Below are positions 1,805 through 64,000 of a DNA stretch of 64,000 nucleotides, piece after piece (the first letter of the stretch is position 1; the number at the start of each line of letters is the position of its first letter). Both the position numbers and the translations under genes were made by a program. The notes under the pieces were generated by a model, which was given only the letters and a program-made list of their open reading frames with translations, did no database searches and was not told where the DNA came from. This stretch comes from an uncultured Candidatus Rokubacteria bacterium (GTDB lineage Bacteria; Methylomirabilota; Methylomirabilia; Rokubacteriales; DASRDR01): the NCBI GenBank assembly GCA_963826115.1, contig CAWGVS010000005.1, positions 32,001 to 96,000 of the forward strand, given 5' to 3'.

Positions 1805-2857
1805 GTGGTGACGCGGGCGGTCGCGGCGGTCGACGACGGCACCGGCCTCCTCCTCCGGGCGACGCTCGCCGCCGACGAGGGGGAGCGCGCCGTCGCGTGG
1901 GCCTGCTGGGCGCGCGATCACGATCTCGACGCGATCGACGCGCTCGGCGGATGGCTCCTGCCGCTCGTCCACCGGCGCGTGCCCCAGGCCGCGCTGGGCT
2001 CGGCCCTCGGCCGCCTCCGCGGGATCCACCGCTACCACTGGACGCGGAACCAGATGCTCGCGTCCCGGCTCGGCGCGGCCTTCCGCGCCCTCGGGCAGGA
2101 CGGCGTCCTGCCGGTCATGGTCAGCGGTCCGGCCCTCGCGATCCGGTGGTACCCCGACGCCGGGGCTCGACCGGTCGAGGTCGCGGACCTGCTGCTCGAC
2201 GTCCCATCGATCCCGCGCGCGGTCGCGCGGCTGCGGGAGCTCGACTGGCTGGACGCCGACCACACCGTGTCGCGCGGGCTCCGCGGTTCGGGGACGCGGG
2301 CGCTCACGACCGAGCCCGGGTGCCGCGTGGTCCTCCATCCCGCGCGGCGGGACGAGCAGGCGCCCGCCGAGGCGCTGGCGGTGGGCGCGACGGAGACGCG
2401 CGCGCTCGACGCGGAGGCGACCCTCGTCGCCGTGTGCGGCGCGGGATGGCGGTTCCGCGAGTGGTCCACGCCCCGATGGATCCCGGACGCGGCGCTCCTG
2501 CTCCAGTCGGCGGGGGCGACGCTCGACTGGGCCCGAGTGGCGACGGAGGCCGCGGCGTGGGGCGCGGCCGCGACCGTGCACGCGCGACTCGCGGAGCTCC
2601 GGGCGGCCGGGCTCGCGCTGGTGCCGGACGCGGCGCTCGACCGGCTCGGGCGCGTCGGGCCGACGGCGCTCGAGCGCGTCGAGACGATGGCCGCGCGCTG
2701 CGTCTCGCGGGCCCGCGCGGAGCAGCTCGGAGTCCGCCGCCGCACGTGGCTCCGCGCCGCCGGATTCGCGTGGGACCGCGCCCTCGCCGCCCTCCGCGGC
2801 GCCGAGCCGGCGCCCCGGCCGGCGCCCCGGGCGCCGACCCCCGCCGCGCGTCAGTGA
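1805..2857 (+). CDS. Nucleotidyltransferase family protein (NTP_transf_5-like), degenerate motif
   Basis: RLRGIHRYHWTRNQ, GPALAIRWYPDAGARP..DLLL, RWIPDA and LDWARV match the family layout. Start uncertain. Confidence 0.6.
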   Translation: MVTRAVAAVDDGTGLLLRATLAADEGERAVAWACWARDHDLDAIDALGGWLLPLVHRRVPQAALGSALGRLRGIHRYHWTRNQMLASRLGAAFRALGQDGVLPVMVSGPALAIRWYPDAGARPVEVADLLLDVPSIPRAVARLRELDWLDADHTVSRGLRGSGTRALTTEPGCRVVLHPARRDEQAPAEALAVGATETRALDAEATLVAVCGAGWRFREWSTPRWIPDAALLLQSAGATLDWARVATEAAAWGAAATVHARLAELRAAGLALVPDAALDRLGRVGPTALERVETMAARCVSRARAEQLGVRRRTWLRAAGFAWDRALAALRGAEPAPRPAPRAPTPAARQ

Positions 2858-4026
2858 GGGTGGGCGGCGCCGCCGCGCAGGAGCCGCGCCGCGCGGAGGG
2901 GGTAGTGGAGCGGCGCGAGCCAGCGCGGTAGCGGCGTCGCCGTCCAGTCGGCCACCGTCGGCATCATCGCGAAGCGGACGTAGGCGAGCCGGTTCCGCCA
3001 CGTCCCGCGCACGCCCAGGTGGAACCGCGCGGTGTCCCCGATCCCGAGCCGCGCGCTCCCGGCGAGGTCGAGCTGGGTCGAGACGACGCGCGCGAGGCCG
3101 GCGAGCCTCGGGTCACTCGCCACCGCGCGGGGCAGGGGATCGGGGAGATCGGTCGCCAGGAGGTCTCGCGCCAGGAGGCAGCCGAGGAGGAGCTCTCGCC
3201 GGTGACCCGCACGGCCGGCGTCGTCGAGAACGCGGGCCCAGTCGAGCGCCGGACGCTTTGCGATGAGCTCCGCCACGTCGACGATCCAGCCGAGGCGCTC
3301 CCACACGTGCTTCGCGCCGTGGACGCACAGCGCCACGAGGAGCACGTCCACGGGGAGCGTCTCGAAGGTCGTCCCCGCCACCGCCACCGTCTCCAGCCGT
3401 TCGCGCGGCAGCGACCCGCCGAGGCCGGACGACAGCGCCCGCGGCGACACGCTCCAGTGGAGCTCGAGCACGATGCCTTCGGGCCGGCGCGTCAAGGCGT
3501 ACGGATGCGCGGAGCGGACGAGCTGCCGCTCCTGCCACGCCCGGAGCGGCACCTGGGGCACGAATCCCTCCGCGAGGAGCGCCGCCTTCGCGGGAGCGAG
3601 CTGCGCGGGATCGATCAGGAGATCGAGGTCCCCGGCGTGCCGGCTGCCGACGCTGCCGTAGACGAGCGCCGCGAGCACCGGCCCCTTGTACGGGATGACC
3701 CGGATACCGGCGTCCCCCAGACGGTCGACGACGCGCCGGAGCCAGCCGGTGAGGAGGAGGCACCGGCCCGTGTTCTCGTGGGTGAATTGCCGAAGCGCGG
3801 CGAGCGTGTCGGACGGCACGAGCCCGGCGGGCGCGGCGCGGAGCGCCTGGTAGACCAGCGGGGCCACGCCGTGGCGGAGGGCCGCCGCGACGACGGCCGC
3901 CCAGTCGATGGGCCCCGCGAGGCGCTGCTCGAGCCGCGCCCGGCGCTCGGGGCGTCGATGCGCGGTGGCGGCGTCGAGGAGGAGCTCGAGCGGCGCCGCG
4001 GCGCTGCCGGCGGGCACCGGGGTCAC
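2851..4026 (-). CDS. Nucleotidyltransferase family protein (NTP_transf_5)
   Basis: PYKGPVLAALVYGSVGSRHAGDLDLLI, ELHW, LCVHGAKHVWERLGWIVDVAEL. Confidence 0.8.
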   Translation of the reverse strand: MTPVPAGSAAAPLELLLDAATAHRRPERRARLEQRLAGPIDWAAVVAAALRHGVAPLVYQALRAAPAGLVPSDTLAALRQFTHENTGRCLLLTGWLRRVVDRLGDAGIRVIPYKGPVLAALVYGSVGSRHAGDLDLLIDPAQLAPAKAALLAEGFVPQVPLRAWQERQLVRSAHPYALTRRPEGIVLELHWSVSPRALSSGLGGSLPRERLETVAVAGTTFETLPVDVLLVALCVHGAKHVWERLGWIVDVAELIAKRPALDWARVLDDAGRAGHRRELLLGCLLARDLLATDLPDPLPRAVASDPRLAGLARVVSTQLDLAGSARLGIGDTARFHLGVRGTWRNRLAYVRFAMMPTVADWTATPLPRWLAPLHYPLRAARLLRGGAAHPH

Positions 4027-42273: not shown

Positions 42274-43232
42274 GTCGACTGCTTCCTCGGCGTTGCGCCG
42301 GCGCGTGCCCCGGAAGACGATTCGGACGCCTTGCCCCGGAGACCGCGGACGAGGATGGCCAACCCGCTCACGACGAGGACCAGGGCACCGAGCTCCGGCC
42401 ACCCCACGGGCTCGCCGAGGAGCAGCGCGCTCCCGAAGAGGCCCACGATCGGGATGCCGAGCGTGCCGATCGCCGCGACGCTTGCCGGGAGGATGGCCAC
42501 GAGACGGAACCAGGCCCAGTGGCAGAAGATCGCGCCGACGAACGTGGCGTACGCCGTGCCGAGGAGCGCGACCGACGAGGGCACTGTCGGCCAGAGCGGC
42601 GCCCCGCGGTGGCTCAGGACGGCCAGGCGGATCGCCTCGCCGACGACGATCGGGACGCCGCCGAGGAGGACCTGCCAGCCGGTCAGGAGCGCCGTCGGCA
42701 TGGTCCAGCGATACGTCTTGATGAGCACGGTGCCGACGGCCCAGGCCATGGCCGCCGCCAGCATGACCAGCGTGCCGGCCGGGGCGGCCCGGAGCGCCCC
42801 CGCCTCGGGGGCGAGCAGCGAGGCGAGGCCGAGGAGACCCAGCCCGAGCGCGACGAGACGGTCCAGGGTGATCCGCTCGCCCACCAGGAGGCGGCCGAAG
42901 ACCACGGTCCAGAGCGGCATCGTGTAGCCGAGGATCGCCGCCCGGCCGGCCTGGATCAGGGTGAGCCCGTAGGCGGAGCAGAGATGCCAGGCCGTGATGT
43001 TGAAGAACGCCACGACGCAGAGGGGCCACCGCTGGTCGCGGGGCACGCGGAGGCTCTGGCCGCCCGAGCGGACCAGGGCGAGGAGCCCGCCGCCTCCCAC
43101 CATGAGGCAGATCGTCCGGAACGTCCACGGATCGATCTCGCGGAGCGCGACCTTCATCGCCGGCCAGTTGCTTCCCCAGAGCACGGTGAGCGCGCCCAGG
43201 AGGAGCAGGCCGCCGAGCGGCAGAGTGCTCAC
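42270..43232 (-). CDS. DMT/EamA-family transporter
   Basis: LWGSNWPAMK, AAILGYTMPLW, AMAWAVGTV, LLLGEP. Start reassigned to GTG 43232. Confidence 0.88.
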   Translation of the reverse strand: MSTLPLGGLLLLGALTVLWGSNWPAMKVALREIDPWTFRTICLMVGGGGLLALVRSGGQSLRVPRDQRWPLCVVAFFNITAWHLCSAYGLTLIQAGRAAILGYTMPLWTVVFGRLLVGERITLDRLVALGLGLLGLASLLAPEAGALRAAPAGTLVMLAAAMAWAVGTVLIKTYRWTMPTALLTGWQVLLGGVPIVVGEAIRLAVLSHRGAPLWPTVPSSVALLGTAYATFVGAIFCHWAWFRLVAILPASVAAIGTLGIPIVGLFGSALLLGEPVGWPELGALVLVVSGLAILVRGLRGKASESSSGARAGATPRKQST

Positions 43233-43290
43233 CGGGCGCGGTCGGGACGCAGGGCGCGGGCGCGCGGGCGCCCCCGGTCGAGCGTGTCCG

Positions 43291-45291
43291 TCAACGGGCT
43301 CCGCGCGCGAGCGTGTCGACGATCGTGTCGACGTCGTAGACACACCCGCCCCACGTGCCGCCGCCCACCGCCTGGAGCGCCGCCCAGAGGCGGGTCTCCG
43401 GCGGGAGGTCGGGGTCGGCCGCGAGGTCGGGCCGGGGCGCCCGGCTGGCGAGGACGCGCGCCCCCTCGGCGGGGTCCCACTCGCGGTCCCCGTGGCCGAC
43501 CAGGTCGATCGAGCCCTCGAGCCGGTTGCGGTCGACGACGATCCGCACGCGATCGCCCTCGACCAGCTTGCCGACGGGTCCGCCGGCCAGGGCTTCGGGC
43601 GCGACGTGCCCGATGCACGCGCCGGTCGACACGCCGGAGAAGCGGGCGTCCGTCAGCACCGCGACGTGCTTGCCGAACGACAGGTGCTTGAGGGCGGCCG
43701 TGATCTGGTAGATCTCCTCCATCCCGGTCCCCAGCGGCCCCCGGCAGATGAGGACCAGGACGTCGCCCGCCTTCACGCCCTCGGGCCCCGTGCTCTTGAT
43801 CGCGGCGATCGCGGCCCGCTCGGTGGTGAACACGCGCGCGGGCCCGGTCTTCCGGTAGACGCCGTCGGCGTCGACGACGGACGGATCGATGGCGGTGCTC
43901 TTGATGACCGAGCCCTCGGGGGCGAGGTTGCCGCGCGGGAAGGTGATCGTGCTGGTGAGGCCCCGCGCGCGCGCCTGCTCCGGCGACATGATCACGTCGT
44001 CGGCGTCGACCCCGTCCTGCGCGCGGAGACGCTCGCGGAGCGCGCGCCGTCGCGCCGAGCCCTCCCACCAGTCGAGCGTTCGCCCGAGCGTGTCGCCGGC
44101 CGCGGTGAGACAGTCGAGCTCGAGGAGACCAAGCCGCCGGAGGTGGAGCATGACCTCGGGCACGCCGCCGGCCATGAAGACGCGCACCGTCGGGTGGTAG
44201 CGCGGCCCGTTCGGCAGCACGTCGACGATCCGGGGCACGCGGCGGTTGATCGCGGTCCAGTCGTCGACGGTGGGCCGCCGGAGCCCCGCCGCGTGGGCGA
44301 TCGCCGTCAGGTGGAGGAGGAGGTTCGTCGACCCGCCGAAGGCGGCGTGGACGGTCATGGCGTTCCGCACCGCGGCGTCGGTCAGGATGTCGCGCGTCGC
44401 GAGCCCGCGGGACTCCAGCGCGACCAGCGCCCGAGCGGAGCGTCGCGCCATGTCGAGCCAGATCGGCTGGCCCGACGGCGCGAGGGCCGAGTGGGGCAGG
44501 GCGAGCCCGAGCGCCTCGCCGACGACCTGGGACGTCGCCGCGGTGCCGAGGAACTGGCAGCCGCCTCCGGCCGAGCCGCAGGCGCGGCAGCCCATGTCGG
44601 CCGCGCGCTCGAGCGTGATCTCCCCGTGGGCGAAGCGGGCGCCGATCGACTGCACGGTGCCGGCGTCCTCCGCGTCGCGAGCGGGCAGCGTCACGCCACC
44701 GGGAACGAGGACGCACGAGAGGCTTCGCATGCCCGCGAGCGCCATCATCATTGCGGGGAGGCCCTTGTCGCATGTGGCGACGCCGAGTACGCCCCGGCGC
44801 GTGGGCAGGGAGCGGATGAGGCGCCGGAAGACCTGCGCGGCGTCGTTCCGGTACGGGAGGCTGTCCATCATGCCCACCGTGCCCTGGGTCCGGCCGTCGC
44901 AGGGGTCGGTGACGAAACCGGCGAACGGCAGGCACTCGAGGCCGCGCAGCTCCTCGGCCGCCGCCTGCATGAGGAGCCCCACCTCCCAGTGCCCCGTGTG
45001 GTAGCCGAGGGCGACCGGTCGGCCGTCCGGCGCGCGGATGCCGCCCTGGGTCGAGAGGATGAGGAACTGCGGCCGTCCGAGCTCCCGCGGGTCCCACCCC
45101 ATGCCCGCGTTCTGCGTCCATCCGAAGAGGTCGCCGCTCGGCCCGTCGAGGAGCATCTCGGGCGTCAACGGCAGCCGGCCCGCCGGCCCGGCGCCGACGG
45201 TCGTGACCTCGAGGAGCCCGCGCGCGTCCGCGTCGCTTCCGACGATCTCCTCGAATGCGATGCTCGTGCCCAGGCGTTGCCGTCCGCTCAT
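43291..45291 (-). CDS. YjhG/YagF-family D-xylonate dehydratase (IlvD/Edd family)
   Basis: [61 protein letters not shown]. Confidence 0.92.
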
Positions 45292-45360
45292 TGGTCGCTC
45301 CTCCGCGCGCTCGCCGGTGGCGGCGCTCCGCCAGTGTACACGGGCCTCGCGGCCCGGGGG

Positions 45361-47004
45361 CTACCGGTCGGCGCGGAGCGCGCGCTCGGCCAGGGCCGGC
45401 GGGAGCCCGCCGCTCCCCGCGAGCCGGTCGTGGAAGCCCCGGAGGCTCGGGGCGTCGCGCCGGTCGCCGAGGTACCGGTCGCGGATCGCCAGGATCTCGA
45501 GGCAGCCCACCAGGTACGCCGACGCCTGGGTGGGCCACGCGGCGTAGCGCGCGACCTCGGCTCGCGCCGTCGGCTCCGTCAGGTTCGCCCGCTCCATCAT
45601 GAATCGCCGGGCGTCGTCGAGCGTCATGTCGCCGGCGTGGAGGCTCGTGTCGACGACGATCCGGGCCGCGCGGAAGAGGAGCGCCTCGACCTGGAACAGC
45701 TCGTGGCGCGGATCGGTGAAGAATCCCTGCTCCCGCATCATCTGCTCGGCGTAGAGGGCCCACCCCTCGCTGAAGTAGGGCGTGCGGAACGTGAGGCGCA
45801 CCGGGCTCGGGTGCGCCTTCATCGTGACCAGATGCCAGTGGTGGCCCGGGTAGGTCTCGTGAACGGCGGTGGTCGGGATGCCGGCGTGGCTGTTGTTCTC
45901 GAGGCGCTGCCGGACCTCGTCCGGGTCCGCGCCGTCCGGCGGGAACGGGACGAAGAAGTGGCCGCGCCGGGACGGCGAGAACGGGGGCGGGCTCGCGTAG
46001 GACGCCACCGCCAGCACCGGGCGCTGGAAAGGCGGCGACGGCTCGACGTCGCACTCCTCGCCCTCGGGGAGGGTCACCAGCTCGCGCTCGCGGAGGAACG
46101 CCCGGGCGCGCTCGGTCCAGTCCGCGTAGGCGACGCGCATCGCCTCGGGGGACGCGGGATGGTCCCGGTTCAGCTCGGCGAGCACGGCCGGCCAATCGTC
46201 CGACCCGGCCACGCGCCGGGAGAGATCGCGGAGCTCGGCCGAGAGCCGCTCGTACTCGCGGCGCCCGCGCTCGCGGAGGGCGCCGGCGTCGAGCGGGACG
46301 TGCTCCTTGTCGCGGAGCAGCCGGCTGTAGCGGGACTCGCCGAGGGCGAAGTCGCCGCCCGCCCGGCCGCGGAGGTCCTCGAGGAAGAGCGCGAACTCCT
46401 CGAAGGCCCTCGCGGCGACCGCGCCGGCCTCGGCGAGCGCGGTCCGGAGGTCGGGGTCGCGCGCCTCGGCGGGGAGCAGCACGCCCACGTACCGGGCGCC
46501 GGCGCGCGCCTGGCCGATCGCGCGGTCGACGAACACCGGAGCGACGAGCGCGGGATCGAGGTTCCGCCGCCCGTGGTCGAGCATCTCGGGGATCCCGCGG
46601 AGCCGGGCGACGGCGTCGCGGACGAGCGCGGGCTCGGGGCGCAGGCGATGGAGGAAGAGGCCGAAGACCCCGTGGAGCCCGGGCCCCAGGTAGACCTCGG
46701 GCTGGCGGCGCCACGCGGCCCACTCGGCGGTGATCGCGCGTCCGGCCAGGACGGAGAGGACGAGGTCGCGGTCGACGCGCTCGCCGGCCGTGAGCCCGTC
46801 GTCGGGGACGGCACGGAAGCGCTCCCGCCAGGCGTCGCTCCGGCGGCGCCGCGCCTCGAACGCCGTGGCGGACAGATCGTCGAGGCGCCCGTCGTACTCG
46901 GTGAGGCCGAGCCCGCTCGCCATGACCGGCGAGGCCTCGCGCTCCTCCGCGAGGAACTCCCGGCACAGCGCGCCGAACGGGGTCAGACCTTGCTTCGGGG
47001 ACAA
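45361..47004 (-). CDS. DUF885-family protein (zincin-like)
   Basis: AVHETYPGHH, FSEGWALYAE, LFRAARIVVDT.LH, PTQASAYLVG, FHDRL. Start uncertain (TTG 47004). Confidence 0.85.
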   Translation of the reverse strand: MSPKQGLTPFGALCREFLAEEREASPVMASGLGLTEYDGRLDDLSATAFEARRRRSDAWRERFRAVPDDGLTAGERVDRDLVLSVLAGRAITAEWAAWRRQPEVYLGPGLHGVFGLFLHRLRPEPALVRDAVARLRGIPEMLDHGRRNLDPALVAPVFVDRAIGQARAGARYVGVLLPAEARDPDLRTALAEAGAVAARAFEEFALFLEDLRGRAGGDFALGESRYSRLLRDKEHVPLDAGALRERGRREYERLSAELRDLSRRVAGSDDWPAVLAELNRDHPASPEAMRVAYADWTERARAFLRERELVTLPEGEECDVEPSPPFQRPVLAVASYASPPPFSPSRRGHFFVPFPPDGADPDEVRQRLENNSHAGIPTTAVHETYPGHHWHLVTMKAHPSPVRLTFRTPYFSEGWALYAEQMMREQGFFTDPRHELFQVEALLFRAARIVVDTSLHAGDMTLDDARRFMMERANLTEPTARAEVARYAAWPTQASAYLVGCLEILAIRDRYLGDRRDAPSLRGFHDRLAGSGGLPPALAERALRADR

Positions 47005-47050
47005 GTCAGTCGGAGCAGCCGGATTGTCCGGATGACGAAGGCTGACCCGG

Positions 47051-48388
47051 TCAGCTGGCCTCGATCCGGCTCGCGAGCCAGCGCGCGGTGCGCAGGAGGC
47101 GGGCGTCGCCGTGCCGGGTGCCGACGAGCTGGATCCCGATCGGGAGCCCGTTCGAGGCGTGCATGAGGGGGAGCGTGATCGCCGGCATGCCGGCCAGCGT
47201 CCACAGGGTGCAGAAGCTCGGGTCGCCCGTGGACTCGAGGCCGTGCGGGGCCGGGCCCGGCGCGGCCGGCGTGAGGATCGCGTCGCAGCGCTCCTGGAAG
47301 AGCTCCGCGAGCCCCTCGGCGAACGCCTCCGCGCGGCGGCGCGCCAGCTGGTAGTCGAGGGCCGTGACCTCCCGGCCGCGTCCGAGCTGGGTCCGGAGGG
47401 CCTCGGACAGGCGGTCACGCCCGACGGTCCACTCGCGGTCGAGGCTGGCCGCCATCTCGGACTCCATGATCAGGCGGTGCCACTCGAAGGCGTCGGCGGA
47501 CTGGACGAGCTCGACCTCCTCCATCCGGTCGCCGAGGAGGCCGGCGAGCTCCGCGAACGCCTCGCGCGTGTCGCCGTCGACGCGGTCCCAGCGCGCGGTC
47601 TTGATGAGGGCGAGCATCGGCGGGATCGGCGGCTCCTCGGCCCCGACGGCGCGGAGCGGCACGCGCGCCCGCGGCCGGGAATCGGGGTCGCGCTCGTCGA
47701 AGCCGATCAGCTCCTCGGTCACGAGGGCGACGTCGTCGAGCGTCCGGGCGAAGACGCCCACGGTGTCGAGGGAGCGGCAGAGCGGGAGCACGCCGTGCCG
47801 CGGGATCAGCCCGTGGGTCGGCTTGAAGCCGTAGACGCCGCAGAACGCGGCCGGCCGGATCACGGAGCCATTGGTCTGGCTGCCGAGCGCGACCGGCACC
47901 ATTCCGGCCGCCACGGCGGCCGCCGAGCCGCTCGACGAGCCGCCGGGTGTGTGGGCGGGGTTGTGGGGGTTCCGCGTCTTGCCCGGCGCGTAGGCCGCGA
48001 ACTCCGTCGTCACGGTCTTGCCCACGATCACGGCGCCCGCGGCGCGGAGCATCGACACCACGGTCGCGTCCCGGGACGGCGTCCGCCCCGCATGGAGCAC
48101 CGACCCGTTCTCGGTCGGCATGTCGGCGGTGTCGATGATGTCCTTCACCCCGACCGGCACGCCGTGGAGCGGCCCGAGCGGACGGCCCGACAACCGGTAC
48201 TCGTCGGCCGCGGCCGCCTGCGCCCGCGCGAGCTCGGGGTCGAGGAACGCCCAGGCCCGGACGTCCGGGTCCACCGCCTCGATGCGGGACAGGCAGGCCT
48301 CGACCAGCTGGACGGAGCTGATGACGCCGTCCCGGACGAGGCGCGCCCCGTCGGTGGCGGAGAGCGCGTAGAGGTTGGTCAGGTCCAT
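47051..48388 (-). CDS. Amidase signature family enzyme
   Basis: GPLHGVPVGVKD, GKTVTTEFA, TPGGSSSGSAAAVA, GSQTNGSVIRPA. Confidence 0.93.
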   Translation of the reverse strand: MDLTNLYALSATDGARLVRDGVISSVQLVEACLSRIEAVDPDVRAWAFLDPELARAQAAAADEYRLSGRPLGPLHGVPVGVKDIIDTADMPTENGSVLHAGRTPSRDATVVSMLRAAGAVIVGKTVTTEFAAYAPGKTRNPHNPAHTPGGSSSGSAAAVAAGMVPVALGSQTNGSVIRPAAFCGVYGFKPTHGLIPRHGVLPLCRSLDTVGVFARTLDDVALVTEELIGFDERDPDSRPRARVPLRAVGAEEPPIPPMLALIKTARWDRVDGDTREAFAELAGLLGDRMEEVELVQSADAFEWHRLIMESEMAASLDREWTVGRDRLSEALRTQLGRGREVTALDYQLARRRAEAFAEGLAELFQERCDAILTPAAPGPAPHGLESTGDPSFCTLWTLAGMPAITLPLMHASNGLPIGIQLVGTRHGDARLLRTARWLASRIEAS

Positions 48389-57341: not shown

Positions 57342-59639
57342 ATGACCCAGGGTTCATCCATCGGCCGGTCCGTCCGCCGCCTCGACGGCGGGGAGAAGGT
57401 CACCGGCCTCACGCGCTTCGCGGGCGACGTCCAGCTGCCGCGCATGGTCCACGCCCGTCTCGTCCTGAGCCCGCACGCCCACGCGCGGATCACGCGCATC
57501 GACGGCCGCGCCGCCGCGGCCCGGGCCGGCGTGCTCGGCGTCTTCGCCGCGGCCGACCTCGGTCTCGTCAACGTCGACCCGACCGCGCGGAGCAAGTCGC
57601 CGCTGGCCCTCGACCACGCGCTCTTCGTGGGACACCCCGTGGCGGCGGTCGTGGCCGAGACGGCGGCCATCGCCGAGGACGCGGCCGCCCTCGTCGAGGT
57701 CGACTACGAGCCGCTTCCGGCCGCGCTGGAGGCGCTCGCCGCGATGCGGCAGGACGCGCCGCGCGTGCGCGCCGCGGCCGCCGCGGGCGGCGAGGCGGAG
57801 CTGGCCATGCACGGCGCGGCGACCGGCGGCGAGCGGCTCCGCGAGACCGTCGGCCCGAACGTCGTGAGCACCCAGCGCTTCCACCGGGGCGACGTGGCCC
57901 GGGGCTTCGCCGAGGCCGATGTGGTCGTCGAGCGCCGCTTCGAGACGCCCATGGTGCACCAGGGCTACCTCGAGCCGCGCGCGGTCGTCGCGGACGTGGA
58001 CCCCCTCGGGGCGCTCACCGTGTGGACCGCGACCCAGGCGCTCTTCTTCACGCGATCGGAGGTCTCTGAGGTGCTCGGGCTGCCCGAGCATCAGGTGAAG
58101 GTCGTGGCGACGCCCCTCGGGGGCGGATTCGGCGCGAAGTTCGTGCTCCTCGAGCCCCTCGCCGCGGCGCTCGCGCTGCGCCTCCGCCGGCCGGTCTCGG
58201 TCGTCATGACCCGCACCGAGGAGTTCCTGTCGACGACGCCGGCCCCGCCCGCGGTGATCGAGCTCAAGGTCGGAGCGCGCCGCGACGGGACCCTCACCGC
58301 CCTCGAGGGCCGGGCGGTGTTCGACGCCGGCGCCTACGCGGGCGCGCCGCTCGGCATCGCGCTCCTCCTGATGGGCAGCTATTACCAGGTGCCGAACATC
58401 GAGCTCCGCGGCTACGAGGTGCTCACGCACAAGCCCGGTAACGGCGCGTACCGCGCGCCGGGCGCGGTGCAGGGGACCTTCGCGATCGAATCGGTCATGG
58501 ACGAGCTCGCGCGGGCGACCGGGCTCGACCCGATCGACCTCCGGCTCCTCAACGCGTCGCGGCCGGGCGACCCGATGGTGACCGGCCAGCCCTGGCCGAA
58601 GATGGGCCTCGTGGAGTGCCTGGAGCGGCTCCGCGAGGAGCGCGGCCGTCGCGCCACGCGCCGCCGCCGCCCGCGAACCGGGCGGTACCGGCGGGGATCG
58701 GGGGTCGCCGTCGGGGGCTGGATGGGCGGGGTCGAGCCCGCCAACGCCGCGTGCCGCCTGGACCGCGACGGGACGGTCAGCATCCTCGTGGGCACCGTCG
58801 ACATGAGCGGCACCAACACCGCGTTCGCCCAGATCGCCGCCGAGGCGTTCGGCATCCCGTTCGAGGACGTCCGCGTGATCAACGGCGACAGTGACACCGC
58901 GCCGTACGCGGGGGCGAGCGGCGGCAGCAAGATCACCTACACCGTGGGCCTGGCCGTGGAGCGCGCCGCCCGCGAGGCCCGGCGGCAGCTCCTCGCCATC
59001 GCCGCCGACCGGCTCGAGGCCTCGATGGAGGACCTCGAGATCGTCGACCGCGCGGTGCGCGTCCGCGGCGTCCCCGCGCGCGCCGTCGCCCTCGGCGACC
59101 TCGCCAAGGCGAGCATGCAGTTCGGCGCGAAGTACGAGCCCGTGTACGGGCGGGGCGGGAGCGCGACGGTCGCGCGCTCGCCGGCGTTCGCCGCCCACTG
59201 GAGCGAGGTCGAGGTGGACACGGAGACCGGCGCGGTCCGGGTGACCGGCCACCTGGCCGTGCAGGACGTCGGGCGGGCCATCAACCCGGCGGCCGTCGAG
59301 GGACAGATCCAGGGCGGCGTGGTGCAGGGGATCGGCTGGGCGCTCCTCGAGCGGATGCCGTACGACGAGGCGGGCCAGCTCCTCGCGGCGACGCTGATGG
59401 ACTACGCCTTGCCCCAGAGCGACCAGGTGCCGAGCGTGGAGTCCGTCCTGCTCGAGGTGCATTCCGACCACGGCCCCTTCGGCGCCAAGGGCGTGGGCGA
59501 GCCGCCGATCGTCGGCGTGCCCGCCGCGATCGCGAACGCGGTCGCCGCCGCGACCGGGCATCGGTTCACGTCGCTCCCGATCACGGCGCACGAGGTCGTC
59601 GCGGCACTGGACGGCCACGCCGGCGGCCGGGCGGGCTGA
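57342..59639 (+). CDS. Xanthine dehydrogenase/aldehyde oxidase family molybdopterin-binding subunit
   Basis: DGGEKVTG, HQGYLEP, GGGFGAK, AYRAPG, GQIQGG..QGIG, GAKGVGE, AIANAV. Confidence 0.92.
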   Translation: MTQGSSIGRSVRRLDGGEKVTGLTRFAGDVQLPRMVHARLVLSPHAHARITRIDGRAAAARAGVLGVFAAADLGLVNVDPTARSKSPLALDHALFVGHPVAAVVAETAAIAEDAAALVEVDYEPLPAALEALAAMRQDAPRVRAAAAAGGEAELAMHGAATGGERLRETVGPNVVSTQRFHRGDVARGFAEADVVVERRFETPMVHQGYLEPRAVVADVDPLGALTVWTATQALFFTRSEVSEVLGLPEHQVKVVATPLGGGFGAKFVLLEPLAAALALRLRRPVSVVMTRTEEFLSTTPAPPAVIELKVGARRDGTLTALEGRAVFDAGAYAGAPLGIALLLMGSYYQVPNIELRGYEVLTHKPGNGAYRAPGAVQGTFAIESVMDELARATGLDPIDLRLLNASRPGDPMVTGQPWPKMGLVECLERLREERGRRATRRRRPRTGRYRRGSGVAVGGWMGGVEPANAACRLDRDGTVSILVGTVDMSGTNTAFAQIAAEAFGIPFEDVRVINGDSDTAPYAGASGGSKITYTVGLAVERAAREARRQLLAIAADRLEASMEDLEIVDRAVRVRGVPARAVALGDLAKASMQFGAKYEPVYGRGGSATVARSPAFAAHWSEVEVDTETGAVRVTGHLAVQDVGRAINPAAVEGQIQGGVVQGIGWALLERMPYDEAGQLLAATLMDYALPQSDQVPSVESVLLEVHSDHGPFGAKGVGEPPIVGVPAAIANAVAAATGHRFTSLPITAHEVVAALDGHAGGRAG

Positions 59640-60895
59640 TGGCGGCGACGCGCGAAGCGGCGGCGGCCTCGCCGGAGCTTCGCCAGCGGGTTCTGGGGCG
59701 GATCGACGACGACGAGGTCGTCCGGCTCGCCCAGGACCTGATCCGGATCCCGTCGTTCACGACCGAGGAGACCCCCTGCGCGGAGTGGCTGGCGAACTAC
59801 CTCGCCGACCAGGGCCTCGAGGTGGAGCTCCAGGAGATCGAGCCGGGGCGGAAGCAGGCCGTGGCCCGCCTCCGCGGCACGGGCGGCGGCCGGTCGATCA
59901 TGCTCAACGGACACATCGACATCGATCCGCTCGCGAGCGGCTGGACCCGCGATCCCTTCGAGCCCTGGATCGCCGAGGGTCGCCTGTACGGCCACGGGAT
60001 CTTCAACATGAAGGCGGGCGTGACCGCGAACATCATGGCCGCGCTCGCGCTCCGCCGGGCGGGCGCGCCGCTGCGGGGCGACGTCGTGGTGGCGTGCGTG
60101 GCCGCGGAGCTCAACAGCGGGATCGGCACGATCCACGCGATCCGGCACGGCGGGCGGACGGACATGGCGGTCGTCTCCGAGCCGTACGGCGCCGACACGA
60201 TCCTCACGAAGCACACCGGGACCATGGACGTCGTGGTCCACACGCTCGGGCGGGCAACGCACATCAGCAAGAAGGAGCAGGGCGTGGACGCCATCGGGCT
60301 GATGATCCGGGCCATCGGCGCGCTGAACGCCATGCGCTTCACCCACGTCCACGACCCGGACCTGCCGGGCCTCCCGCGCCTGAACGTCGGCTCCATCGTC
60401 GGCGGCCGGGGCCGGAGCCACGAGCTGCGCGGCGCCTACACGGTCAGCGACCACTGCACGGCGTACGTCAACGTGCGCTTCAACGCGAGCCAGACCGGCG
60501 AGACCATCCTCGCCGACTTCCGCCGGACGCTCGACGGGCTCGCGGCCGAGGACCCGACCTTCCGGTACGAGATCGAGTTCCCGCCCGCGCTCGAGCGCGG
60601 GCTCGGGCGGCTCGCGAAGGCCGCGGTCGACGTGCCGAAGACCGAGCCCGTCGTGCAGATGGTGCGGTGCAGCCTCCACGCCCTGACCGGGCGCGAGCCC
60701 GAGCACTTCGGGGTCCGGCTGCCCCAGAGCTACGCCGGGAACGACACGACGCACCTCTGGGCCGCGGGCATCCCGTGCTGTCTCTACGGGCCCGGCGGCG
60801 GGTATACGGACTACCATGACGTGCACGTCACCCTCGCGGACCTGTTCCTGTGCACGAGGGTCCTGGCCCTGACCGCGCTGGAAGCGGCCCTGTGA
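59639..60895 (+). CDS. M20-family (ArgE/DapE-like) metallo-amidohydrolase with atypical metal site
   Basis: LIRIPS, NGHID, GIFNMKAG, VSEP, GRATH, YGPG. Overlaps the upstream stop. Confidence 0.82.
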   Translation: MAATREAAAASPELRQRVLGRIDDDEVVRLAQDLIRIPSFTTEETPCAEWLANYLADQGLEVELQEIEPGRKQAVARLRGTGGGRSIMLNGHIDIDPLASGWTRDPFEPWIAEGRLYGHGIFNMKAGVTANIMAALALRRAGAPLRGDVVVACVAAELNSGIGTIHAIRHGGRTDMAVVSEPYGADTILTKHTGTMDVVVHTLGRATHISKKEQGVDAIGLMIRAIGALNAMRFTHVHDPDLPGLPRLNVGSIVGGRGRSHELRGAYTVSDHCTAYVNVRFNASQTGETILADFRRTLDGLAAEDPTFRYEIEFPPALERGLGRLAKAAVDVPKTEPVVQMVRCSLHALTGREPEHFGVRLPQSYAGNDTTHLWAAGIPCCLYGPGGGYTDYHDVHVTLADLFLCTRVLALTALEAAL

Positions 60896-62046
60896 CGGGC
60901 GCGGCCGACGTGCGCTACGTCGACCCCGCGACCGGCCGCACGTATCCCCTGGCCGAGCCGCGATGGTGCGGTGACGACGGCCACTACCTGAACCTCGAGC
61001 CCGGGCCGGGGCTCGGGCGGGACGACATCGACCCGGGCCAGGACTCGGTCTGGCGCTACGCGAAGGCGCTCCTCGTCGACCCGGGCGACGCCGTCAGCAT
61101 GGGCGAGGGCTGGACGCCGCTGGTCGCGGGCACGTGGGCCGGCGCCCCCGTCCTGTTCAAGCTCGAGTTCCTGATGCCGACGGGGTCGTTCAAGGACCGC
61201 GGCATGACGGTGATGGTGAGCTACCTGAAGAGCCGCGGCGTCGACCGCGTGCTCGAGGACTCGTCGGGGAACGCCGGCGCGTCGCTCTCCGCCTACGCGG
61301 CGCGGAGCGGCCTGTCGTGCCGCATCCTGGTGCCCGAGACGGCGTCCTACCCGAAGATCGCCCAGATCGCCGCGTGCGGCGCCGACGTCGTCACGATCCG
61401 GGGCTCGCGCCAGGACGTCGCCGAGGCCGCGCTCCGGCAGAGCGCGGACATCTTCTACGCGAGCCACAACTGGCAGCCGACGTTCGTGGAGGGCGTGAAG
61501 ACGCTCGCGTACGAGCTGTGGGAGCAGCTCGCCTTCAACGCGCCCGACAACGTCGTCGTGCCCCTCGGCTACGGGAGCAACGTCCTCGGCTGCGAGCGCG
61601 GCTTCGACGAGCTCCTCCGGCGTGGCGAGATCGTCCGGCGGCCGCGGCTCTTCGGCGTCCAGGCGGCGAACTGCGCCCCCTACCACGCGGCCTTCCGGGC
61701 GGGGGTCGAGCACCTCGTGCCCACGACGATCGCGCCGACCGTCGCCGAGGGCATCGCCTCGGCCAAGCCCACGCGGGTGGCCGAGGTGCTCCGCGCCGTG
61801 CGGGAGAGCGGGGGCAGCGTGGTGACGGTCGACGAAGCGGAGATCGTGGAGGCGCTCGGGACCCTGGCGCGCAAGGGGCTCTACGTGGAGCCCACGTCCG
61901 CGGCGGCCGCGGCGGGGCTCGGCCGGCTCCTCGAGACGGGCGCCATCCGGCCCGACGAGACGACCGTGCTCGTCCTGACCGGATCGGGCCTCAAGGCGTC
62001 CGCGAGCATCGGCGAGCTCCTGAAGCTCGGCGCGCGGGGCGACTGA
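60892..62046 (+). CDS. Threonine synthase-like PLP enzyme (fold type II)
   Basis: MGEGWTPL, PTGSFKDRG, SSGNAGAS, EPTSA, LTGSGLK. GTGA overlap. Confidence 0.88.
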   Translation: MTGAADVRYVDPATGRTYPLAEPRWCGDDGHYLNLEPGPGLGRDDIDPGQDSVWRYAKALLVDPGDAVSMGEGWTPLVAGTWAGAPVLFKLEFLMPTGSFKDRGMTVMVSYLKSRGVDRVLEDSSGNAGASLSAYAARSGLSCRILVPETASYPKIAQIAACGADVVTIRGSRQDVAEAALRQSADIFYASHNWQPTFVEGVKTLAYELWEQLAFNAPDNVVVPLGYGSNVLGCERGFDELLRRGEIVRRPRLFGVQAANCAPYHAAFRAGVEHLVPTTIAPTVAEGIASAKPTRVAEVLRAVRESGGSVVTVDEAEIVEALGTLARKGLYVEPTSAAAAAGLGRLLETGAIRPDETTVLVLTGSGLKASASIGELLKLGARGD

Positions 62047-62050
62047 GCCC

Positions 62051-62374
62051 ATGCGGCTGACGCCGACCGAGCTCGACCGCCTGGCGATCTTCACCGCCGC
62101 CGAGCTCGCCCGCCGCCGGCGCGCGAAGGGCTGGCGGCTCACGTATCCGGAGGCGCTGGCGCTCATCTGCGACGAGATGCACGAGGCCGCGCGCGGGGGC
62201 GCGTCCTACGCGGAGGTCGTCCAGACGGCCCGCGGCGTCCTCACCGAGGACGACGTGCTGGACGGGGTCGCCGATCTGGTCGGCACCGTGAAGCTGGAGT
62301 GCCTGTTCGGAGACGGCACCCGAGTCCTCCACGTGGAGCGGCCGATCGGGCCGGGCCGGCGGCCGACGGCATGA
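62051..62374 (+). CDS. ureA: Urease-like gamma subunit
   Basis: MRLTPTE.DRL.IF.AAELARRR, YPEALALI, F.DGT....V..PI. Confidence 0.88.
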   Translation: MRLTPTELDRLAIFTAAELARRRRAKGWRLTYPEALALICDEMHEAARGGASYAEVVQTARGVLTEDDVLDGVADLVGTVKLECLFGDGTRVLHVERPIGPGRRPTA

Positions 62375-62769
62375 GGCCGGGGGAGGTCCTGTTCGCCGAG
62401 GGGACGATCGTCCTGAACGCCGGCCGGCCCACCGTCGAGGTGAGCGTGACCAACACCTCGGCGCACACGATCTTCATCAGCTCCCACTTCCCGTTCTTCG
62501 AGGTGAACCGCCGGCTCGAGCTCGACCGCGCCCGGGCCTGGGGCATGCACCTCGACATCCCTGCCGGCGACGCGGAGCGCTGGCGCCCGGGCGAGACCCG
62601 GATCGTGCGGCTCGTCGCCTTCGGGGGCGCGCGCGCGGTGCGCGGGTTCAACGGGCTCACGGACGGCCCGGCCACGCCCGAGCGCCTGGCCGGGGGCCTC
62701 GCGCGGGCCCGCGCGGGCGGGTACGCGCACCGGGATGCGGGCGCCCCGGAGGCCTCCCGTGGCCGGTGA
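62371..62769 (+). CDS. ureB: Urease-like beta subunit
   Basis: MRPGEV, LNAGR, SHFPFFEVN, GMHLDIPAG, PGETR.V.LV.FGG...V.GFNGL. ATGA overlap. Confidence 0.88.
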   Translation: MRPGEVLFAEGTIVLNAGRPTVEVSVTNTSAHTIFISSHFPFFEVNRRLELDRARAWGMHLDIPAGDAERWRPGETRIVRLVAFGGARAVRGFNGLTDGPATPERLAGGLARARAGGYAHRDAGAPEASRGR

Positions 62770-64000
62770 GCTGACGCGCCCCGAGTACTCGGGGCGCTAC
62801 GGGCCCACCACCGGCGACCGCGTGCGGCTGGGGGACACCGACCTCCTCCTCCGGATCGACCGCGACGAGTCGAGCTACGGCGACGAGGTGCTGCGCGGCT
62901 GGGCCAAGACGTTGCGCACCGGGATCATGACCAACGCCGAGCTGCCGGCGGCGAGCGAGCTCGACCTCATCGTCACGAACGTGATCGTGATGGACCCCGT
63001 CCTCGGCATCTTCAAGGGGAACATCGGGGTGAAGGACGGCGTGATCGTCGGCGTGGGGCGCGCCGGCAACCCGGACGTCGTGGACAACCCGGACCTCCTG
63101 ATCGGCTCCAACACGGTGCCGGTGTACGGCCAGGGCTACATCGCGACGCCCGGCGGCATCGACACCCACGTCCACCTGGTCCAGCCGCGCCTCATCCCGG
63201 CCGCGCTGGCCGCGGGCATGACGACCCTGATCACCGGCGGCCTCAACGAGAACCCGGCCTTCAACCTGGACCACATGTTCCTTGCCTTCGAGGGGTTCCC
63301 GGTGAACCTCGGCGTGCTCGGCCGCGCCGCCAGCTACGTGGCCGCCCCGCTCGAGCGGCAGATCGAGTCGGGCGCGTGCGGCCTCAAGGTGCACGAGGAC
63401 TACGCGGGGTACCCGAGCATCGTCGACGCGGCGCTGACCGTCGCCGACGCCTACGACGTCCAGATCGCGATGCACACCGACGGCCTCAACGAGTCGTGCG
63501 AGCTCCACGAGACCGTCGCCGCGATCGCGGGGCGGAGCATCCACGCCTACCACGTGGAGGGGATCGGCGGCGGCCACTCGCCCGACATCCTGGCGATCGC
63601 GGGGATCGGCCACGTCATCGGGTCCTCGACGACGCCGACGGTGCCCTACGGCCGGAACGTCGCGGCCGAGCACCACGCCATGATGTGGTCGGTCCACGGC
63701 ATGAACCCGCGCGTCCCGAGCGACCACGTGATGATCGCCGACCGGATCCGCGAGTCCACGATGCGCGCGGAGAGCGTGCTCCACGAGCTCGGAGCGATCA
63801 GCATCATCAACTCCGACTCCCAGGGGATGGGGCGCATCGGCGAGGTGATCCGCCGGACCTGGCAGCTCGCCCACCAGATGAAGCGCATGCGGGGCGAGCG
63901 CCCGCCGCACGACAACCCGCGGATCCTCCAGTACCTCGCGAAGTACACGATCAACCCCGCGCGGGCCCACGGCGTGGACCGCTGGGTGGGCTCGCTCGAG
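62759..64000 (+). CDS. ureC: Urease-like alpha subunit, partial (runs off the window), divergent active-site periphery
   Basis: Manual translation gives YGPTTGDRVRLGDT, GRAGNPD, GGIDTHVH, GLKVHED, MHTDGLNE, AYHVEG.GGGH.PD, NSDSQGMGRIGE, KYTINPA. Absent from the ORF track because there is no stop in the window. Confidence 0.9.
   Translation, partial: MAGELTRPEYSGRYGPTTGDRVRLGDTDLLLRIDRDESSYGDEVLRGWAKTLRTGIMTNAELPAASELDLIVTNVIVMDPVLGIFKGNIGVKDGVIVGVGRAGNPDVVDNPDLLIGSNTVPVYGQGYIATPGGIDTHVHLVQPRLIPAALAAGMTTLITGGLNENPAFNLDHMFLAFEGFPVNLGVLGRAASYVAAPLERQIESGACGLKVHEDYAGYPSIVDAALTVADAYDVQIAMHTDGLNESCELHETVAAIAGRSIHAYHVEGIGGGHSPDILAIAGIGHVIGSSTTPTVPYGRNVAAEHHAMMWSVHGMNPRVPSDHVMIADRIRESTMRAESVLHELGAISIINSDSQGMGRIGEVIRRTWQLAHQMKRMRGERPPHDNPRILQYLAKYTINPARAHGVDRWVGSLE

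Follow-up and report, generated by a model that had tools for sequence, protein, structure and literature searches.

A 64,000-nucleotide stretch of DNA from an uncultured Candidatus Rokubacteria bacterium (the window; positions 32001-96000 of contig C5 of its genome, which is ~73% G+C) ends in a urease-like cassette of three co-oriented genes that overlap or abut one another. The cassette occupies the last 2 kb of the window in the order gamma, beta, alpha, and it belongs to a urease-family lineage (the clade) that is distinct from canonical ureases and has probably spread by horizontal transfer. Urease is the textbook nickel enzyme requiring a dedicated line of chaperones, and to our knowledge only isolated exceptions to that need exist. 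We give about even chances to the reading that the cassette represents a urease lineage that matures unaided and hydrolyzes urea formed inside the cell, perhaps by means of a different metal.

Retained metal site and remodeled pocket

The alpha subunit gene (ureC-like; 62735..64000, plus strand, cut by the window end) has the urease alpha fold, an N-terminal urease domain plus an amidohydrolase triose-phosphate isomerase barrel, as judged from matches to PF00449 and PF01979 and from an AlphaFold2 model (predicted local distance difference test 82, predicted template modeling score 0.90). The 39 best Protein Data Bank (PDB) matches of this model were all urease alpha chains, with template modeling (TM) scores of 0.88-0.93. 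The canonical nickel ureases of Klebsiella aerogenes (2KAU/1FWJ), Sporosarcina pasteurii (4CEU), and Helicobacter pylori (1E9Z) share the three-subunit build and, within that TM range, the fold; they are 42-44% identical to the alpha subunit and agree with it in the metal ligands, the bridging lysine, the substrate His, the flap His, and Arg. What sets the clade apart from them is a loop shorter by 10 residues, a rewritten flap, the motifs HEDYA, HVEGIGGGH, and SQGMGR, a separate branch in the family tree, and a cassette with neither adjacent ureDEFG genes nor a link to the urea transporter UrtA.

Motifs were compared with H. pylori UreB (PDB 1e9z; alignment score 519 bits), and residue invariance was determined in an alignment of 26 sequences from the clade, other non-canonical relatives, and canonical ureases. 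All six metal ligands, which the preliminary description of this DNA had reported as apparently kept, are invariant in that alignment: H145 and H147 (His145-x-His147, 63167..63175), K218 at the position of the carbamylated bridging lysine, H247 in MHTDG (63473..63475), H273 in HAYHVEGIGGGH (63551..63553), and D361 in NSDSQGMGR (63815..63817), all on the plus strand. His220 and Asp222, which lie with Lys218 within KVHEDYA (63386..63400, plus strand), are likewise invariant, as are flap H321 and R337, and R339 is nearly so (at least 90%). We take the catalytic and substrate roles of H220, D222, H321, and R337/R339 to be those assigned in the K. aerogenes work.

Around these residues the pocket has been rebuilt. 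The loop TGGLNENPA (residues 167-175; 63233..63259, plus strand) is 10 residues shorter than in canonical ureases, in line with the earlier estimate of about 10, and TGGLNENPAF stands where H. pylori UreB has GGGTGPADGTNATTITPGRR. The canonical loop GGGTGPAxGTxATTxTPG is shortened throughout the clade, in which the form GGL[ND][EDQ]NP is fixed. The flap motif (residues 312-323; 63668..63703, plus strand) reads EHHAMMWSVHGM against EHMDMLMVCHHL in the H. pylori UreB alignment. Here the catalytic His321 is kept, the flap Cys is replaced by Val320 and the second His by Gly322, and an extra His and a Trp appear, such that canonical MVCHHL reads WSVHGM, again as a clade-fixed change. The helix-turn-helix of the flap region is kept in the AlphaFold2 model (H303-320, H328-337). 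Other segments differ from H. pylori UreB as well, with GWAKTLRTG for GGGKTLREG, KVHEDYA for KIHEDWG (Y223 and A224 are clade-fixed against canonical W and G), and SDSQGMGR for SDSQAMGR (G364 is clade-fixed, the canonical residue being Ala); HVEGIGGGH replaces canonical HTEGAGGGH, with V274 and I277 as clade-fixed differences. The altered flap, GWAKTLRTG, HEDYA, and SQGMGR had all been picked out in the preliminary description, and each is present where it was placed.

When 134 clade sequences were compared with 9 canonical ones, 57 positions were fixed in the clade where the canonical set has another, near-fixed residue; that set is small, and at least one of the 57 (G33) does not differ from H. 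pylori. The flap holds 18 of these differences, and 39 of the 57 lie among the 131 positions that surround the ligands, the loop, and the flap (hypergeometric p ~1e-14).

Conservation and distribution of the clade

At least 134 sequences, with labels from at least seven phyla, carry these motif changes in fixed form. Pairwise identity among the 134 clade sequences is 72-100% (median 85%), compared with 37-53% to the 9 canonical sequences, and 341 of the 564 alpha positions are at least 97% conserved. In a search of 5.8 billion proteins, the best 120 of 7410 matches were 79-91% identical and 541-570 residues long, mostly 555-556; among these 120, every named protein is called "urease subunit alpha", and the labels of metagenome-assembled genomes (MAGs) include Planctomycetes, Acidoferrum, Entotheonellaceae, Methylomirabilis, and Bathyarchaeia. 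The cassette was found in 21 species genomes assigned to Rokubacteria/Methylomirabilota, Planctomycetota, Nitrospiraceae, Chloroflexota/Dehalococcoidia, Burkholderiales, Gammaproteobacteria, and Acidoferrum, phylum assignments that are MAG labels and can be wrong. The gamma-beta-alpha order is identical in all 21 genome loci, and against four same-genus loci the ratio of nonsynonymous to synonymous substitution rates (dN/dS) of the alpha gene is 0.10-0.12. These data show an intact cassette that is maintained by purifying selection. The Protein Atlas returned only "urease subunit alpha" clusters, mostly from Actinomycetota, and literature searches at the level of listings and abstracts gave no description of the clade.

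Placement in the urease family was examined with a quick IQ-TREE phylogeny (LG+G4, 41 rows) comprising the query and 14 sequences from clade loci, 2 clade proteins from the protein search, 5 canonical UreC taken from beside ureF/ureG in relatives, and 19 of 150 representatives, restricted to near-full-length sequences with fragments excluded; the root was set on ligand-lost sequences by assumption. In this tree the clade forms a single branch (Shimodaira-Hasegawa-like approximate likelihood ratio test 100, stem 0.30) nested in a wider non-canonical, ligand-keeping UreC-like group (support 99) and apart from the canonical group (support 96). The phylogeny that the preliminary description had proposed as a check therefore places the clade outside the canonical, accessory-linked ureases. 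Within the clade, Rokubacteria sequences turn up in three places, and from phylum to phylum the synonymous distances (0.6-0.8) are unsaturated, although high G+C content at third codon positions (GC3) compresses these values; both observations are compatible with horizontal spread. The 50%-identity representatives (P0123-P0170) form a large UreC-like radiation, some members of which keep all ligands with other flaps and loops of intermediate length, while several metal ligands have been lost in others, for example P0137, P0152, P0153, P0155, P0161, P0163, P0165, and P0170.

Profile scores agree with this placement. The alpha subunit fails the urease equivalog model TIGR01792 (624.1 bits, cut-off 680) and passes only the subfamily model NF009686, its top score at 687.5 bits. 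The bifunctional gamma/beta model NF009671 scores 137.8 bits on the gamma part and 131.5 bits on the beta part. Because these two models score best, public annotation calls the proteins urease subunits; both are annotation models rather than characterized enzymes, and in the cassette gamma and beta are separate genes.

Accessory and nickel genes

The preliminary description had pointed to the downstream sequence as the place to look for ureDEFG. None of these genes follows the cassette: the genes beyond ureC encode an aminotransferase, a flavin monooxygenase, and, on the other strand, a YceI protein. The whole Rokubacteria genome (99% complete, 12 contigs) holds one UreC-like gene and gave no match to UreD, UreF, or UreG/HypB-type GTPases, UreE having not been searched for separately. 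Among 41 related genomes, alpha matches fell into two classes with none between, the paralog described here (79-92% identity) in 13 genomes and canonical UreC (47-51%) in 14, with both enzymes in 3 of the 41. UreF and, over its cut-off, UreG occurred in exactly the 14 genomes with canonical UreC, on the same contig beside the canonical gene, and were absent from all 10 paralog-only relatives. One of the 41 genomes, which is flagged as unpublished, gave no relevant match and supports none of the claims. Carriers from other phyla lacked UreF in 6 of 10 cases and had it on another contig in the remaining 4, so that most carriers besides the Rokubacteria genome are without accessory genes. The UreF and UreG profiles, which were built from the canonical clusters of the relatives and recovered the control loci, had no match in the window or in 101 cassette loci (901,234 bases). 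A urease relative whose genomes lack urease helper genes is either self-maturing or not an ordinary urease, and the same absence offers a second explanation for the remodeling, namely self-assembly of the metal site or use of another metal.

Nickel genes were considered as a clue to the metal. The Rokubacteria genome has matches to NicO-family metal transporters and no HupE/UreJ, and its matches to the NiFe-hydrogenase family were only weak and NuoD-like; nothing decisive emerged. A candidate replacement chaperone is a COG0523 GTPase gene beside the helper-less cassette. It was set aside as a general stand-in, being present at 7 loci that represent one UreC lineage and not found in the Rokubacteria genome with a narrow two-sequence profile. 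In that one lineage (L021:5259-17154; also L041, L042, L044, L045, L091, and L106) the cassette sits in a long same-strand block that runs carbamoylase-type M20, ureABC-like, PotABCD-like ATP-binding cassette (ABC) importer, polysaccharide-deacetylase-family gene with weak likeness to PuuE, COG0523 GTPase, and D-hydantoinase.

Gene neighborhoods

Neighboring genes were surveyed at the 101 loci, which represent 48 lineages at 95% UreC identity, and 467 neighbor genes were clustered; a cluster of 13 apparent "-1" neighbors proved to be an artifact of gene picking, an antisense frame over ureB, and was excluded. No neighbor family is common to the whole clade, and most counts collapse to 1-5 lineages. 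The most widespread neighbor, an SBP_bac_5 binding protein (14 loci), reaches 10 of the 48 lineages and scores far below all NCBIfam cut-offs (GsiB 127 bits, NikA 89 bits), so that a conserved neighbor as a clue to the substrate was given up. A molybdenum hydroxylase of the xanthine-dehydrogenase-like type follows (8 loci, 7 UreC lineages), then an AtzE-like amidase (13 loci, 5 lineages), Amidohydro_2 (11 loci, 4 lineages), a urea-producing agmatinase-family gene (4 loci, 3 lineages) that lies directly downstream of ureC in L077, a D-hydantoinase (7 loci, 3 lineages), a carbamoylase/allantoate-amidohydrolase-type M20 gene (14 loci, 2 lineages), and DUF488 (13 loci, 1 lineage). Urea carboxylase, considered as an alternative urea route, scored over cut-off in none of the 41 related genomes. 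Neighborhoods this varied are compatible with urea or with ureides as the substrate. A portable module that serves in so many nitrogen-catabolic settings is somewhat easier to reconcile with a shared end product such as urea than with a single special compound.

A proposed self-maturing urease and its alternatives

Under the reading that we put at even odds, the lineage would produce an active binuclear metallohydrolase with no help from UreD, UreE, UreF, or UreG in maturation. Catalysis would follow the urease mechanism: His220 would hold the carbamoyl amide for attack by the hydroxide that bridges the metals, and the leaving nitrogen would receive its proton from flap His321. The likeliest substrate would be urea from various intracellular nitrogen-catabolic routes, from which ammonia would be released. 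Chaperone-free self-assembly of the metal site, possibly around a metal other than nickel, would in that case account for the rebuilt flap, the shorter loop, and the changes in the second shell.

Two known enzymes offer precedents for a urease without helpers. The urease of Bacillus subtilis, reportedly the subject of a study by Kim, Mulrooney and Hausinger in 2005, has an active-site sequence that we presume to be canonical. A published account (PMC2770081) describes this urease as functional with its structural genes and no known accessory genes. B. subtilis ureABC thus shares with the cassette the presence of structural genes without accessory genes, in one organism as opposed to the remodeled multi-phylum clade. 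The other enzyme is UreA2B2, which is reported to be accessory-independent and is said to have been described by Carter et al. in 2011 as an iron urease (PDB 3QGA). According to passages of another account, this iron urease co-exists with a nickel urease in Helicobacter mustelae (PMC11541087). UreB2 and the clade have HAYH[I/V]EG and SSTTPT in common; UreA2B2 consists of two subunits compared with three here, and UreB2 is no closer to the query alpha subunit than are the nickel ureases (504 vs 519 bits).

Several observations weigh against a self-maturing urease. UreB2 has the long loop, HEDWG, the CHH flap, and SQAMGR of canonical ureases, all of which are altered in the clade, so a change of metal or a loss of helpers alone need not cause remodeling. 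The concentration of 39 of the 57 fixed differences at the active site is a pattern that a change of substrate would also give. UrtA scored over cut-off in 12 of the 41 relatives, all of which have a canonical urease, often on the same contig, and it was found in none of the 10 paralog-only genomes. A canonical urease set is also present in 7 of 23 carrier genomes examined, which argues against simple redundancy of the two enzymes. The MAGs from other phyla, of which 6 of 10 lacked UreF, may be incomplete. As for expression, soil RNA-library contigs match parts of ureC, one of them over 151 nt with full identity; these are a weak hint and no proof of transcription. RNA runs X19 and X20 of this material give identical numbers of records and identical pieces, look like one data set filed twice, and were counted once, and none of the public sequencing runs holds half of the query words.

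Much of this evidence could also be read as favoring a urease-family amidohydrolase whose physiological substrate would be, instead of urea itself, a substituted urea or an amide of similar kind (ureidoglycolate or another N-carbamoyl compound, methylurea, or biuret, for example), taken up in a different and probably larger pocket. The clade-fixed differences in the active site and flap, the loop shortened by 10 residues, the failed TIGR01792 cut-off, the position within a ligand-keeping UreC-like radiation with varied flaps, the canonical urease alongside in some carriers, and the missing UrtA link are all consistent with it. Some loci are, moreover, flanked by the carbamoylase/allantoate-amidohydrolase-type M20 gene and an ABC importer, with a D-hydantoinase and an AtzE-like amidase nearby. 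The fact that UreB2 keeps its canonical loop and flap keeps this alternative alive, although we consider it somewhat unlikely: all residues that bind or protonate urea are retained, ureide-type neighbors occur in only 2-3 of the 48 UreC lineages, and the clade has no common neighbor, which would be unusual for a specialized pathway enzyme. We also know of no non-urea enzyme with the three-subunit urease build, a further point against a special substrate. The preliminary description had held that this is not a true urease and that its substrate is different and probably bulkier. The first of these claims is upheld in that the sequence is non-canonical (a clade of its own, a failed equivalog model, and 57 fixed differences); the second went beyond the data, in which every known urea-hydrolysis residue is kept, neighborhoods vary, and ureide-type neighbors are confined to 2-3 lineages. 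A bolder form of the substituted-urea proposal, a chaperone-free and possibly non-nickel three-subunit hydrolase whose rebuilt pocket would take substituted ureas or ureides and not urea, as the first enzyme of the urease family with a new chemical niche, strikes us as rather doubtful. If true, such a hydrolase would be common among uncultured phyla of soil and sediment, and surveys of the nitrogen cycle would at present be scoring it as ureC.

That the enzyme is an ordinary nickel urease whose maturation factors escaped detection is improbable. Its accessory genes might lie in unassembled DNA, since MAGs can be incomplete, or unrelated chaperones might serve instead, and both the COG0523 GTPase in the same operon-like block at 7 loci and the NicO-family matches would suit such a scheme. 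Against this stand the near-complete Rokubacteria genome with no UreD, UreF, or UreG match, the equal absence of UreF and UreG from every paralog-only relative, the restriction of the COG0523 gene to one UreC lineage and its absence from the Rokubacteria genome with the profile used, and an alpha sequence that is not ordinary in its TIGR01792 score, its separate branch, or its fixed differences. A non-catalytic or decaying relic is very hard to credit. Other UreC-like representatives have indeed lost metal ligands, but here all ligands are kept, dN/dS is ~0.1, identity across phyla is 72-100%, and the three genes stay together in every one of the 21 genome loci.

If the clade is indeed a helper-free lineage, large, highly conserved, and spanning many phyla, it would be a natural experiment on how a binuclear site assembles unaided. 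It may reveal whether another metal can serve and which features of the flap and the pocket are imposed by urea and by nickel. Since the genes are annotated as urease alpha, surveys of ureolysis based on ureC may be counting an enzyme whose substrate and metal are putative; the surveys concerned are those of soil Rokubacteria/Methylomirabilota, Chloroflexota, Nitrospirota, and others.

Gene boundaries in the cassette

The gamma homolog (ureA-like, 107 aa; 62051..62374, plus strand) matches PF00547 at 113 bits and passes TIGR00193 (106.5 bits, cut-off 82.3), and its top NCBIfam model is the fused gamma/beta NF009671. Its start lies 4 nt from the stop of an upstream gene for a pyridoxal phosphate (PLP) enzyme. 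The beta homolog (ureB-like, ~132 aa; 62371..62769, plus strand) matches PF00699 at 111.9 bits, over residues 27-123 of a longer open reading frame at 62299-62769, and passes TIGR00192 (110.9 bits, cut-off 90.3). Its most likely start, judging from the ATGA overlap with the ureA stop, is the ATG at 62371.

In the contig sequence the full ureC-like gene ends at the equivalent of window position 64429, 429 bases beyond the window, and encodes 564 aa from the ATG at 62735 or 556 aa from the GTG at 62759. The GTG appears the likelier start because homologs (555-556 aa) begin at that position, and it would overlap the end of ureB by 11 nt; automatic annotation may accordingly add an 8-residue N-terminal extension to the alpha subunit. 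Regulatory RNA near the cassette was considered and dismissed. A search of 16 loci against Rfam gave one match, 5_ureB_sRNA at 46.5 bits (cut-off 40), in a Dehalococcoidia MAG (L022:1510-1789, minus strand), antisense to the 5' region of its ureC-like gene. As it falls on coding sequence, it probably reflects coding similarity and not a conserved small RNA.

Other genes of the window

Upstream of the cassette, on the plus strand, Pfam and NCBIfam matches identify a molybdenum-hydroxylase large subunit (57342-59639), an M20 deacylase (59639-60895), and a threonine-synthase-like (ThrC-like) PLP enzyme (60850-62046). The neighborhood also has an aminotransferase, an NAAT transporter, a TauD-like dioxygenase, and DoxX. 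Of the 21 genome loci, only 7 from the same genus retain this neighborhood, which thus lies outside the conserved cassette. The molybdenum-hydroxylase large subunit has no adjacent genes for flavin adenine dinucleotide (FAD) or 2Fe-2S subunits, and its NCBIfam equivalog scores are far below the cut-offs.

Farther upstream, an open frame of 1390 aa (42994-47166) has no Pfam match and a GC3 of 0.77, compared with at least 0.9 in its neighbors, and may be no real gene or may be foreign DNA. Two adjacent genes of the uncharacterized nucleotidyltransferase family NTP_transf_5 lie at 1805-4026, and in an Acidoferrum MAG a gene of the same family (L016:1953-3446) immediately precedes the cassette.

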